Positions 37,835 to 61,000 of a DNA stretch of 64,000 nucleotides are shown one piece after another (positions within the stretch are counted from its first letter, which is position 1; the number at the start of each line of letters is the position of its first letter). The notes under the pieces were generated by a model. That model searched no databases, was not told where the DNA came from, and saw only the letters and a program-made list of their open reading frames with translations. The stretch is from positions 111,352,001 to 111,416,000 of the forward strand of contig OZ024744.1 of the NCBI GenBank assembly GCA_964016885.1. The letters run 5' to 3'. The translations under genes were made by a program, and so were the position numbers. Source of the DNA: Eledone cirrhosa (lineage: Eukaryota).

Positions 37835-38284
37835 TTGGTAGCTGGACGCACACAATTTCACTGGTATGTTTCTGTCAATTTATTTACAAAAAAGAGAAAT
37901 TCTTGTTTACAAAACTCGTTGTTTTGTAGATTAACCCCCAGGCTGAATTGTCAGCTGGCTGGTAATCTCATTTTTCGCCCCCACTGGGGAGGAAATTTAA
38001 TTTGAGAAAACATTTCAAACATTTCAGACATTTAATATTTTTGCTATTGATAATGACTAGCTTAGTAAATGCAACGCTACCGAACGCTGACGAAGAGAGT
38101 AGAGACTTCTGCCTACATAGGCGTCACTATGGAGACAAATAGTGACAACAAAATTTTGTTTTGCCCAGAAGCCGAAAAATGCAACTTACAAGATGGACCA
38201 CACAGCTTACAACAGACATCAAAAACCATAAAAACTGAAACAATAGACACAACTACAAACGGAAAAACCGACAACCACAACAAC

Positions 38285-38318
<34 letters not shown>

Positions 38319-57296: not shown

Positions 57297-58068
57297 GTGC
57301 TACCGAGGAGCTCTACCGGTTCGTGACAAGATCTACAGGCACGGACGCCCTGGCAGGGATCCTTCCAAGAGGACGTGTCCAAGATGTGCGCAGGACATTG
57401 AAACAGTTCTGCACGCAATTGTACACTGCCCGGGCGTAAGCGACCTGTGGAACTATGCAGAACAACTGCTGTCGCGTATGGGACAAATACAGTTGACTGC
57501 CGAGTCCATAGTAAGGATCAAACCGCCAGACTCTTTCAAAAACGAAAGAGAGGCGGTTTTCCTCTGTACGGTGGCTATGGTGAAAGAAGTTATATGGTGG
57601 ACGAGGTTGGGGGGACTGAGGACAGATGCCTTTCTCTCCGGACAACAATTGATTCCATTCTTTAAGTATCACTTTAGAAGGAGAATCAGGGTGGAGAGAG
57701 AGGCACTGCACCCCAGTAAATTTACTGAAAGGTGGGTGAATGAAGCGAAAATGGCCCGAGTGATTGGGCCTTCTCTGTTTATAAGCCTGTAGGTAGAGGA
57801 AGAGAGCAAAAGGAAGAAAGGAGCACTTGCACAACACGCTCCTTGAGTTGAGGGTTGTTCTATCGACGGGGTATTAAACAACCCATTTGTGGCGCCTCCC
57901 CCCCTATTGGGGATTTCGATTGTTGAAATTGTTTGTTTTTATATTTTTTACACGACTGTATGTAAAATCCCCGGCATGTCTTTGTATTGTCCCTTTTCTT
58001 GTTGCGCCCTTGTGGCTAATAAAGAAATCTATCTATCTATCTATCTATCTATCTATTTATCTATCTAT
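57297..58068 (+). mobile_element. Tx1/L1-clade element T7, heavily 5'-truncated and T4-like
   Basis: Starts in (CTAT)n at GTGCTACCGAGGAG; ORF2 ends 57792; CTAT tail. Confidence 0.92.
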
Positions 58069-61000
58069 TCTGGCTTTACTTGAGACGTGTGCCAGTTCGC
58101 TGGTAAGTTTTTGTTGATTTTCTAAGTAAGAAATCCAAAATTTATTGTTAAATTTATTACTATTTTATAGCTTGACCCCACGTCTGGATTTTCAGACGGT
58201 GGGTCAAGTCATCTTCACCCCTCCCTGGGGTGAAATTTTCGTTTTGAAAAAAATTTCGCCGATGAAAAAAAAAAAAGTGTAAACAAACCTTGCGTTCATA
58301 ACTAGAAGTGGTGGAGAGGCGGTAAGAGTGTTAAGCTCGCAGTCACCTCCTCTCACCACCTCATTGAAAGACGTCGAAAATGTCGTCAGTTTTAAAAACA
58401 CGATGTCGGACGTTGATTGTAACATCAACACTAACACAAATACCAATAACATACAAAATATAAGCAACACCAACCAGAACAACAACAACAACAACAACAA
58501 TAATGACAACAAGAACAACAACAGCAACAATGATAACAACAACACCACCACCAACAACAACAACGATGATAACAACAACACCACCAACAACAGCAGCAAC
58601 ACGAACAACTCCACGAACAAGGAAAAGATTTCTTTTGCTCAAACCGTCCAAAAGACGGAACTGTTCACATACCTTGACATTTCCAAGGCTAGGGAAATGT
58701 TAAGCGATGCAAAACAGTATGTAACTTTTGGTGAGAGTGGTGCTTTCAGCATCACTTCTCCTCAACAGTTACGCAGAGAAACTGTTCTGAAAACAGTAAT
58801 TTTTAGAACGGTTTCAAATGTGTCGAAAAAACCAGTTCAGTTATCCCAAAACGATATTGAACTGGTTCTGAAGAATTCCATGAAAGATGTTGCCTTCATC
58901 CAAAAAGGGAAACTTTTTGAAAGCATTTCGGTATTGTTGAAAGACCAATTGACAGCACAAAAATATTCTGTATCGCCGATTGTGTCCCCCCTTTACACCT
59001 TTTCCCCCACATATATGGGAAAAAGAACTAAAAAAATAAAAATTTCGAACATTGCACCAAATGTAAACGTCTGGTGGATTTTAACTGGCTTCATCGATTT
59101 CGACGAAGACACCATCATTTCGGTGGGAAAGTCCTCCAGAGGCACATTCAATGGTACAAGTTTGGAAGTTCTGGTCCAAATGAGGCCAGAACGGATAGCT
59201 AAAATACCCCCAACGTGTGCCTCTGGATGGAATTTCACACATAAACATTTCTGTTGAGGGTAGGCGGCCTTCATGTTACCACTGTTTAAGCAGTGGTCAC
59301 CTGAAGGCTTACTGTCCTCAGTTAACTAAAAAAAAAAGAGGCACTACTGCCAACAACACAACCACCACCACCACCACCACCACCACCACCACCACAACAA
59401 CAACAACAACAACACCACGCAAACACAACCAAAAAAAGAACAACAAACCAACCTGCAAGCACAGTCCCACCCAACCCCACTCCACCTAAAACCACTGCAA
59501 AAACACCCACAAACACAACAGCTCCCCAAAACATACCCCTTCCAAATAACACACACCACAACGGACGAGGCCCCCACATCATCACCAAGTGATGATGAGG
59601 GAGAGCCTCTCCGTTCGAAAAGAAAGAAGAAAAGACACCACAAGAACAAAAAAACAACAAACATCACTACAAACATACAACCACCAACACAAACAACACA
59701 AACATTACAAACAAAAACCCCCCGTCCCGAAAACAAAACCACGACATCACTCCAAACACAAACACCTACAACAAAACGAAAGCTCCCACAAGAACAACAG
59801 ACAAAAACCACCGCAACACAAGTACATTACACATACATAAACAGTAAAAACAAAACTTTAATGGAGGTCTCCTCCAACGACCCTTCGGTGAAAACCGAAG
59901 GGAAAACTTTTTCGAACTGTGTAGACAAACCTAATTTAAAGATGATTAGGGTCCCTTCGGACACCTATAAGTCTTTAAAGGAAAACTTTCCTAAGGACGT
60001 GGGTAATCCTTGTGTTAAACCCATTAACCGCGTCCTTTTAAAACGTTTCCCCACCCTCACCCCAGACACCCCCACCCCACCAAACATCTCCGTCCACACC
60101 CCGCCGGAAACCACCACCCACCCAGACAACTCCTCTAACACCCCCATGGAAACCGTGCGGCCTGATCCCCGGGAGACGAAGAGGTGAGTGTTTTCTTCTC
60201 CTCTTTTAACTTTTCAGAACCAACATGGTCAATATAAGAGTTGGATGTGTGAATGTACGCGGCCTGGGGTGCCCTGGAAACAGGGCAAACTCTTAAACGA
60301 CCTCAGGTTGCACAGAATGGATATAGTAGCCATTTGCGAGTCCAGGATCCACAGCGAGCGACAGCTAGCCCCATCTTCGATGACTTTGAGATCTACGCAT
60401 CTCTCTGTCAGCCGGGGGTGGGGGCGGAGTTGCCGTTTTGCTGCGGAAACACCTGAGCCTCGTAACACAGACGGTACATCTGGACCCGAAAGGTCGACTG
60501 GTGGTCGTAGACGTTGACGGTAGTGAAGGTGGAGCCTTCAGGCTGGTGGCCGCATATGTCCCATCCGGGACACCGCGGCCAGACTTCTTCAAACGTCTAG
60601 AGACTTTTCTGGGAACGTCCCGCTCCTTGCTTTTAGTGGGGGACTGGAATGGAATCCTAGATGCACGATGGGACTATGTGGGAGCATGTCCCGATAAAGG
60701 GGGCTGTAACATCCCCAAACAGTTAATCGGCCGATTTAACCTGGCCGATAGATATCGACTAGATTTTCCGACTGTGCCACTGTGGACGTGGACTAATTTT
60801 AGCGGTACATCTAGATCGTACCTAGATAGGGTTCTAGTTAGAAATAAGGATAGGGACATGTTAAGCTGTCCACAAATGTTCATGGTTGCCTATTCAGATC
60901 ACAAACTAGTGACCTGCATGGTCAACCTTGATAGAACCCATAGACAAAGACCCGGCTACTGGCAGCTGAACTTGTCGTTACCGACATGCAAAGCATACAG

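Follow-up and report, generated by a model that had tools for sequence, protein, structure and literature searches.

The 64,000-nt stretch of Eledone cirrhosa DNA analyzed here (the window; contig OZ024744.1, positions 111,352,001 to 111,416,000) contains eight head-to-tail L1/Tx1-like LINEs, which encode an APE endonuclease, a reverse transcriptase (RT) and a zf-RVT domain. The elements, the target arrays preceding three of them and a conserved 3' structure are as follows.

T1, 21290..26489, + strand: LINE truncated at its 5' end inside ORF1 (approximate start); it lacks a leader and gives no information on the intron
T2, 26634..32462, + strand: full-length LINE with broken ORFs; first ATG after its intron-like unit at 26850
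T3, 35680..37776, + strand: LINE, 5'-truncated within ORF2
(CTAT)n target array upstream of T4, 37779..37829, + strand
T4, 37830..43734, + strand: full-length LINE; ORF1 ATG at 38053; EN, RT and zf-RVT pieces; broken ORFs
3' stem-loop of T4, 43713..43723, + strand: 3 bp, 5-nt loop, just before the terminal AATAAA
Short (CTAT)n array upstream of T5, 43735..43753, + strand
T5, 43754..49224, + strand: full-length LINE carrying internal deletions; ORF1 ATG at 43967
T6, 49286..57155, + strand: LINE of the T4 family, 5'-truncated; an LTR retrotransposon is inserted within it
T7, 57295..58027, + strand: LINE of the T4 family, 5'-truncated
(CTAT)n array upstream of T8, 58027..58068, + strand
T8, 58069..63881, + strand: full-length LINE; first ATG at 58262; broken ORFs

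By domain content and target preference, these elements classify as L1/Tx1-like LINEs. Their ORF2 has the EN-RT-zf-RVT order of L1/Tx1-type elements, with PF03372 and PF00078 above cut-off and PF13966 just under it (E 9e-6, 4e-5), and its closest solved protein is L1 ORF2p (E 1e-46, vs 1e-26 for R2). None of the 120 ORF2 matches listed is a named Tx1 protein. A CCHC zinc knuckle in ORF1 is a Tx1 feature, and three of five knuckle-bearing pieces gave PF00098 at E 0.004-0.05, all below cut-off. The tails of this one locus display the target-sequence preference of the Tx1 clade: the repeat that follows is CTAT in six of the eight elements and ATT in two, T1 and T2, which belong to a sister lineage with (ATT)n rather than CTAT behind it. 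The domain order is shared with Tx1-clade LINEs, and microsatellite targeting with Kibi, Koshi and the crocodilian TTCC/TTTC families, from which the present elements differ in target, (CTAT)n or, for T1 and T2, (ATT)n, and in their mollusc host; tandem insertion is described for the Tx1-mobilised SINEU (PMC4494074). The 3' stem-loop is found in all eight tails, with one two-sided change in T2. An identity as Penelope-like elements (PLEs) was considered and rejected: instead of a telomerase-like RT with GIY-YIG, these elements have an L1-like RT with an APE endonuclease, plus a separate ORF1, and they end in AATAAA plus the target repeat rather than carrying a pLTR, self-comparison having revealed no 5'-3' repeat inside T2, T4, T5 or T8. 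Host-contaminant scans for further loci gave 104 and 19 pattern matches in bacterial and archaeal genome contigs, none of them confirmed.

Close to the 5' end of each full-length element lies a short intron-like unit.

T4 intron-like unit, 37864..37929, + strand: 66 nt; donor 7/9; TAG acceptor
T5 intron-like unit, 43785..43851, + strand: donor 7/9; two in-frame acceptors, 43839 and 43851
T8 intron-like unit, 58103..58170, + strand: 68 nt; donor 8/9; TAG acceptor
T2 counterpart, weak or decayed, 26678..26743, + strand: 66 nt; donor 6/9; candidate AAG acceptor

The donor is found at +35 (T4), +32 (T5), +35 (T8) and +45 (T2) from the visible 5' boundary. Scored against the general donor consensus, T4, T5 and T8 have U1-complementary GT donors. 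They also combine a YAG acceptor, in each case TAG, with a pyrimidine tract (pyrimidine share 0.75 in T4, 0.75 or 0.50 in T5 for 43839 or 43851, and 0.67 in T8), which T2 lacks with its AAG and a share of 0.58. GC content is 0.48-0.53 in exon 1, drops to 0.18-0.26 within the unit and returns to 0.40-0.58 downstream, and the steps coincide with both junctions. The preliminary description had reported these units from inspection, and its coordinates, lengths and junction letters (T4 37864-37929, T5 43785-43839, T8 58103-58170, T2 donor 26678) are confirmed, as are the AT-rich interiors (18-26% GC) and the weaker T2 donor (6/9); the T2 unit is not significant alone. Its 55-nt length for T5 holds for the junction at 43839, which has the better pyrimidine tract. 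The acceptor at 43851 is the one that aligns with T4 and T8, with 14/45 downstream positions identical in the three copies as against 8/45 for 43839; taking 43851 as the homologous acceptor, the unit lengths are 66, 67 and 68 nt in T4, T5 and T8. Branch points usually lie ~18-40 nt upstream of the AG. The units contain no clear one; a candidate word, TTGT-W-A, a weak match, precedes the acceptor by 20 nt in T4, 25 or 13 nt in T5, 19 nt in T8 and 11 nt in T2.

To gauge how readily such units arise, we defined a strict unit as a donor matching at least 7/9 of the consensus, a YAG, at least 66% pyrimidine in the preceding 12 nt and a length of 50-75 nt, cut-offs that were set after the sequences had been seen. 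The 64 kb contain five strict units on the + strand, three of which are those of T4, T5 and T8, and six on the - strand; two fall in the sense-strand LINE bodies (31,829 nt). Among 20,000 dinucleotide shuffles of each leader, 0.24-0.40% had a unit with its donor at +21..61, whereas a unit anywhere in the leader appeared in 0.7-1.1% under the strict, 3.6-4.9% under the medium and 31-36% under the loose setting, the only one to admit T2. The resulting per-copy P is 0.002-0.004 with the post hoc cut-offs and 0.04-0.05 with looser ones, values that should not simply be multiplied because the cut-offs are post hoc and the copies share ancestry. These numbers bear on the quite unlikely alternative that the unit has no role in splicing and is AT-rich spacer DNA that separates a GC-richer promoter piece from a hairpin, its GT and AG being there by descent. 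There are only three to four related copies, T-rich DNA supplies pyrimidine tracts free, and the loose test is passed by about a third of shuffles; nevertheless, local-block shuffles that keep the composition yield a unit in 0.3-0.9%, antisense leaders contain a strict unit in 0/4 cases, and the donor is identical at 8/9 positions (-1..+8) in T4, T5 and T8 although the leaders are 46-48% identical.

Upstream of that donor, identity in the same anchored comparison is 5/29. Donor, acceptor, length and position are kept in 3/3 full-length CTAT-target copies, which represent two lineages, and T2, a third lineage in the tree, has a weak, probably decayed version. At four-fold sites of ORF2, T4 is 67-69% identical to T5 and T8, and 158/247 sites (64%) are identical in all three; given this and the shared ancestry, some sharing of motifs is expected without selection. 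The leaders had been called otherwise unalignable, which is partly wrong: those of T4 and T8 align from the acceptor onward over 97 nt at 70% identity (E 8e-7, z 9.8). Within the units, the word AGAAAT..TTGT occurs in 4/4 and nowhere else on the + strand. It was defined after the fact and is out of register in alignments, and interior similarity reaches significance in 4/6 pairs against mononucleotide shuffles and in 0/6 (p<0.05) against dinucleotide shuffles (sum z 2.2, p 0.021), so that a conserved interior promoter motif is suggestive.

A second conserved feature precedes the donor by 20 nt in T4, T5 and T8.

T4 DPE-like motif, 37844..37851, + strand: 6/8 to RGACGTGY
T5 DPE-like motif, 43765..43772, + strand: 6/8 to RGACGTGY
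T8 DPE-like motif, 58083..58090, + strand: 8/8 to RGACGTGY

This spacing was matched by 1/50,000 shuffles, and T2 has just 5/8 matches; the consensus is that of Penelope (PMC2377424), and the motif is a putative DPE in the octopod. If the DPE lies at +29, transcription would start near 37816 (T4), 43737 (T5) and 58055 (T8), which places the donor at a predicted +49. This is close to the position in Penelope of D. virilis, which has a 75-nt 5' UTR intron at +46 behind a TATA-less internal promoter with a DPE; deletion of that intron is described as abolishing reporter protein while RNA was still present (PMC2377424). The Penelope donor and acceptor are kept at 67% overall identity, and genomic copies keep the intron whereas most transcripts are spliced; the Chlamys-3_cRei PLEs share this promoter and intron layout (PMC2377424, PMC8557442). 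As judged from the DNA, the arrangement at this locus, in which a DPE-type motif is followed shortly by a putative small intron in the 5' UTR, is that of the Penelope promoter and intron, yet in an L1-type element; splicing is proven for Penelope and predicted for the present LINEs.

The positions of upstream AATAAA signals, 98, 60 and 85 nt before the donor, bring in an alternative that we consider very unlikely, namely that the donor acts on read-through RNA from the array or host, either by blocking the upstream poly(A) site or by processing multi-unit transcripts. From retroviral biology, a nearby downstream donor is known to occlude a poly(A) site, and the elements do stand head to tail within one target repeat. 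The distance varies with microsatellite length, however, reaching 198 nt in T2, the DPE-like motif suggests that each element has its own promoter, and occlusion needs no acceptor.

Predicted RNA structure begins immediately downstream of the acceptor.

T4 hairpin, 37930..37966, + strand: directly past the acceptor; -12.1 kcal/mol
T5 hairpin, 43853..43888, + strand: directly past the 43851 acceptor; -16.7 kcal/mol
T8 two hairpins, 58171..58234, + strand: directly past the acceptor; the first -24.5 kcal/mol

The conserved post-acceptor hairpin has two-sided changes at 5/16 pairs. The post-acceptor region has z -6.3 in T8, and over 101 nt z -1.4 in T4, not significant alone, and -0.35 in T5. Exon 1 and intron together show no excess of folding over shuffled sequence (z -0.15 to +1.3), and the donor positions are mostly predicted to be paired.

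Copies with precise loss of the unit, whose presence the preliminary description had proposed as a check, are absent in the window (0/4 full-length copies; the best match has 7-8 mismatches in 24). The 95% upper bound on the spliced-copy share is 0.53 for 0/4 and 0.63 for 0/3, and this result is compatible both with rare splicing and with two RNA pools. Rare splicing is what a model drawn from human L1 would assume: the sites would be kept because they either act in the promoter at the DNA level or bind U1, with U1 binding stimulating the promoter or shielding the RNA from internal poly(A) signals, and splicing would be an incidental dead end. Human L1 keeps a functional donor, G98U99, from L1PA1 to L1PA10, plus 5' UTR acceptors; this donor falls within a RUNX3 site. 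Most of the 5' UTRs stay unspliced, and the spliced copies, SpIREs, amount to ~2% of full-length insertions and are dead ends (PMC5860796). The present elements are likewise of L1 type and keep a donor close to the 5' end as well as 5' UTR acceptors, and the lack of spliced copies, the mostly paired donor, the interior word and the one to three internal AATAAA in every full-length copy fit the same model. We nevertheless consider it the less probable account. The interior word is subject to the reservations above, and neither the GC step nor the hairpin at +1 is explained, nor is an acceptor kept at 66-68 nt, which a donor-only role does not require. Furthermore, human L1 has one donor, explained by the RUNX3 site, and several acceptors 520-880 nt off (PMC5860796), whereas the present elements keep, across families, a single compact unit made up of donor and acceptor.

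Based on these features, we propose, with a probability of about one half, that the units represent an incompletely spliced U2-type intron, short and ancestral, within the 5' UTR of microsatellite-targeting LINEs. The layout as read from the DNA is a DPE-like motif, a donor 20 nt on, about 67 AT-rich nt, an acceptor, a conserved hairpin and ORF1. RNA polymerase II would start ~48 nt upstream of the donor, within the CTAT repeats, and splicing would be genuine yet incomplete, perhaps owing to partial base-pairing of the two sites. Intronless copies would make little protein, as in Penelope, and lineages would persist only via insertions templated by unspliced RNA, which might be served either by its own proteins in cis or by proteins from spliced RNA in trans. 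The preliminary description had suggested that a retained intron separates translated from transposed RNA. Of that claim, the retention is supported by ends, length and position that are kept despite the divergence of the leaders, and the separation of pools is possible. A two-pool mechanism needs mobilisation in trans, which the cis preference seen in mammalian L1 speaks against (PMC3747384); the small conserved 3' stem-loop leaves room for trans recognition. We hold it to be doubtful, though conceivable, that a LINE lineage independently evolved the Penelope layout in full, with most RNA spliced and translated, unspliced RNA picked by the proteins in trans through the 3' stem-loop, and a promoter split between the element (the DPE) and its target (a start in the CTAT repeat), such that transcription would occur only after insertion in the target and the RNA would begin with target repeats.

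Copy-and-paste elements replicate through RNA, and loss of introns is therefore expected. The retention of introns during retrotransposition has been called highly unusual and its significance unknown, with the PLEs' own mechanism as its probable cause (PMC8557442). If an ordinary L1/Tx1-type TPRT element keeps the same DPE-donor-intron layout in diverged families, retention would reflect selection on expression and not PLE chemistry, and the amount of spliced RNA relative to that of spliced genomic copies would directly test how strictly cis preference applies in non-mammalian hosts. Retention of 5' UTR splice sites is in any case not unique to PLEs, human L1 keeping them too (PMC5860796), and the earlier statement that retention is known mainly from PLEs was thus incomplete. 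L1, Tad, kangaroo-1, Penelope and Athena have been named as having introns in transcripts (PMC1636488), and the sections of the Tx1 literature consulted contain no report of a leader intron. The introns of Drosophila TART, mostly 53-104 nt, are alike in size and spacing in UTRs that have diverged (PMC1636488). The present units resemble them as putative short introns of a non-LTR element with diverged UTRs, and their length is comparable to that of the TART and Penelope introns; the TART introns belong to antisense RNA, which poses no retention problem, whereas the present units are on the sense strand.

Several other roles were considered. Placement of the T5 and T8 donors in hairpins raised the idea of a spliced-leader RNA; against it stand the acceptor that follows in cis and the folding of exon 1 with the intron, which does not exceed that of shuffles. 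An HDV-like ribozyme (nested double pseudoknot) was found in 0/4 leaders with our own descriptor, and no Rfam family reached the gathering threshold in the window (best E 0.16 in the T8 leader and 0.74 in the T4 leader). The only upstream ATG of the T4 leader (37866) lies inside the unit and opens a 22-codon uORF, and an exon-1 ATG of T5 (43759) is in frame with ORF1 once the unit is removed. Removal would thus cost T4 its uORF, give T5 an in-frame start and do neither in T8 and T2; upstream ATGs differ in all copies, and no conserved translational switch was found. A shared coding role across the junction was also rejected: T5 is in frame with a stop-free shuffle P of 0.18, T8 is stop-free without an ATG (P 0.59), the T4 junction makes a stop and T2 has stops. 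ORF1 relatives that could reveal an N-terminus encoded by exon 1 were sought among 269 and 582 candidates, and none was found. A further 32 matches are remote, at 20-38% identity.

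A putative leader intron, clear in the sequence and unexpected for an element of L1/Tx1 type, is carried by three to four decayed copies at a single locus. By self-comparison and tails, these copies belong to a set of eight related non-LTR retrotransposons (T1–T8) arrayed on the + strand of the window between about 21.3 and 63.9 kb. A domain search identifies APE endonuclease, RT, and zf-RVT in pieces of their ORF2, and the nearest solved protein to ORF2 is human L1 ORF2p (E 1e-46 vs. 1e-26 for R2). Among the matches listed, the best named relative is an Argonauta hians protein (60% identity), followed by cuttlefish proteins (36–49%), which makes an octopod the probable host. 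ORF2 is also 62% identical to protein P0005, labelled as coming from a Herbaspirillum MAG, which is probably host DNA in a bacterial bin. CTAT repeats lie 3' of six of the eight elements and ATT repeats 3' of T1 and T2, a habit that agrees with the microsatellite targeting known for elements of the Tx1 clade (PMC4494074), to which the array may belong.

In a tree built from the 3' portion of ORF2, with all eight copies included, three groups form: T1+T2, T4+T6+T7, and T3+T5+T8. ORFs are broken in every copy. T2, T4, T5, and T8 are full length, and the other four are 5'-truncated within the ORFs and uninformative on the leader. T5 (43754–49224) and T8 (58069–63881) are 89–98% identical in ORF2; their identity is lower in ORF1 (53–77%) and in the leader (47%), and the post-acceptor leader of T8 is nearer to that of T4 than to that of T5, which suggests that 5' modules were exchanged between families.

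The preliminary description placed intron-like units in the leaders of T4 (37864–37929, 66 nt), T5 (43785–43839, 55 nt), and T8 (58103–58170, 68 nt), and all three are found there. Exon 1 has a GC content of about 0.5 and the interior of the units one of 0.18–0.26, with a renewed rise at the AG. We defined a strict unit as a donor with at least 7/9 matches to the donor consensus, a YAG with at least 66% pyrimidines, and a length of 50–75 nt. The + strand of the 64 kb holds five such units, three of them those of T4, T5, and T8, and the − strand holds six. Shuffled leaders carry a strict unit at a similar position in 0.24–0.40% of cases and a unit anywhere in 0.7–1.1%, 3.6–4.9%, or 31–36% as the definition relaxes; the T2 counterpart (donor at 26678) meets only the loosest definition. 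Because the cut-offs were chosen after the data were seen and the copies are related by descent, conservation is the stronger argument. Pairwise identity among T4, T5, and T8 is 46–48% across the 300 leading alignment columns, and 8/9 donor positions (−1 to +8) are identical in all three, compared with 5/29 further upstream. Counting against this argument, the three also agree at 158 of 247 four-fold sites in ORF2 (64%), so that the families are not saturated by ORF2 standards.

The leaders, previously described as otherwise unalignable, do align in part: T4 and T8 are 70% identical over 97 nt from the acceptor onward. In alignments the acceptors of T4 and T8 face the second AG of T5 (43851), with downstream identity at 14/45 positions versus 8/45 for the first AG. 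The latter (43839), which closed the 55-nt unit, stands as an extra in-frame acceptor 12 nt upstream with a better pyrimidine tract, and is replaced by 43851 as the homolog, giving unit lengths of 66, 67, and 68 nt (T4, T5, T8). A hairpin begins within the first few bases past the acceptor (−12.1, −16.7, and −24.5 kcal/mol in T4, T5, and T8) and has two-sided changes at 5/16 pairs; taken alone, it is significant in T8 only (z −6.3; T4 −1.4, T5 −0.35). Most donor positions, the acceptor G, and the first exon 2 bases are also predicted to be paired, and splice sites so paired could render splicing partial. Exon 1 and the intron fold no better than shuffles. In T8 and T5 the end of exon 1 pairs into a small hairpin (58091–58106 and 43774–43792) whose 3' arm contains the donor; this hairpin is not clear in T4 or T2.

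All four units contain AGAAAT followed within 10 nt by TTGT-K-W-A, a pattern, defined after looking at the units, that has no further occurrence on the + strand and a single one on the − strand. The words are out of register in alignments. Interior similarity is significant in 4/6 pairs against mononucleotide shuffles and, with the longer T5 unit and both sequences dinucleotide-shuffled, in 0/6 (sum z 2.2, p 0.021). The pattern is a lead toward a possible branch point or factor site, and nothing beyond. No uORF switch is common to T2, T4, T5, and T8: splicing is predicted to remove a 22-codon uORF in T4, to turn a 9-codon uORF of T5 into an in-frame ORF1 extension, and to change nothing in T8 and T2. 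Beyond the acceptor, the leader has no stop in the frame of ORF1 in T5 (43840–43966; shuffle P 0.18) and T8 (58171–58261; 0.59), in contrast to T4 and T2.

The top-scoring match to the DPE-like motif RGACGTGY lies 20 nt before the donor in T4, T5, and T8 (6/8, 6/8, 8/8), tied in T5 with another 6/8 match at −11. Matches of 6/8 or better at one shared offset in all three leaders arose in 1 of 50,000 shuffles; the motif is not enriched window-wide (7 found, 5.7 expected), and T2 scores at best 5/8. A DPE lies at about +29; if so here, transcription would start within the CTAT array that lies upstream, and the donor would be at +49. With a repeat period of 4, the A at the predicted start adds nothing to the evidence. 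This extended DPE is a promoter element common to Penelope and Drosophila LINEs, and the Penelope intron, of 75 nt, is located at +46 (PMC2377424). Judged from sequence, the elements appear to work like Penelope at promoter and intron; they differ from Penelope-like elements (PLEs) in endonuclease type and terminal repeats and do not class with them.

An efficiently spliced, dispensable intron would be lost within one retrotransposition cycle. All three lineages carry the unit, T2 in weak form. Copies with its precise loss, suggested earlier as a check, were sought among the four full-length copies of the window, none of which had lost it; this sets an upper bound of about 0.53 (0.63 without T2) on the share of templates that were spliced, and insertions thus appear largely templated by unspliced RNA. 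Separate translated and transposed RNA pools, as first envisaged, would require mobilization in trans. Mammalian L1 prefers cis, and LINEs with 3' stem-loops recognize their template by sequence (PMC3747384). A 3-bp stem-loop precedes AATAAA in 8/8 tails, with one two-sided change, and weakly supports the trans route.

Most Penelope transcripts are spliced, and intron deletion abolishes reporter protein while RNA persists, so that intronless copies are disadvantaged (PMC2377424). We propose, with a probability of about one half, that the intron is likewise retained here since copies without it would be at a disadvantage. Human L1 retains its donor within a RUNX3 site; its RNA is rarely spliced, and copies that arise from spliced RNA are dead ends (PMC5860796). 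That splice sites were similarly kept here for another role, with rare splicing and spliced copies as dead ends, we consider unlikely and rate below a disadvantage of intronless copies, which the kept acceptor, the fixed unit length, and the DPE geometry favor. Full-text searches of the open literature turned up no account of such an intron in the leader of Tx1-like or cephalopod LINEs.

Other repeats in the window are as follows.

3450–5950: Penelope-like element with weak GIY-YIG (E 0.018) and RT matches
11189–12631: decayed retroelement ORF with no Pfam match, which we take to be PLE-like by motifs
about 18859–20300, − strand: decayed retroelement ORF with an RT match
21076–21253: LTR fragment of the element inserted in T6, just upstream of T1
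26490–26634 and 32463–32600: near-identical SINE-like fragments, with ATT repeats, after T1 and T2
32600–35680: about 3 kb of microsatellite-rich DNA (CAC x379, TCT x107) between the ATT-target pair and the CTAT array
50976–56493, − strand: LTR retrotransposon within T6 (RT, RNase H, integrase, DUF7041; LTRs 95% identical), presumably Gypsy from domain order

The fragments behind T1 and T2 would stem either from 3' transduction or from insertions that repeatedly hit one and the same tail. T3 begins directly after the TCT run, and the 5' flank of the Penelope-like element (3219–3522) recurs 15 kb away at 18201–18504 with 98% identity.
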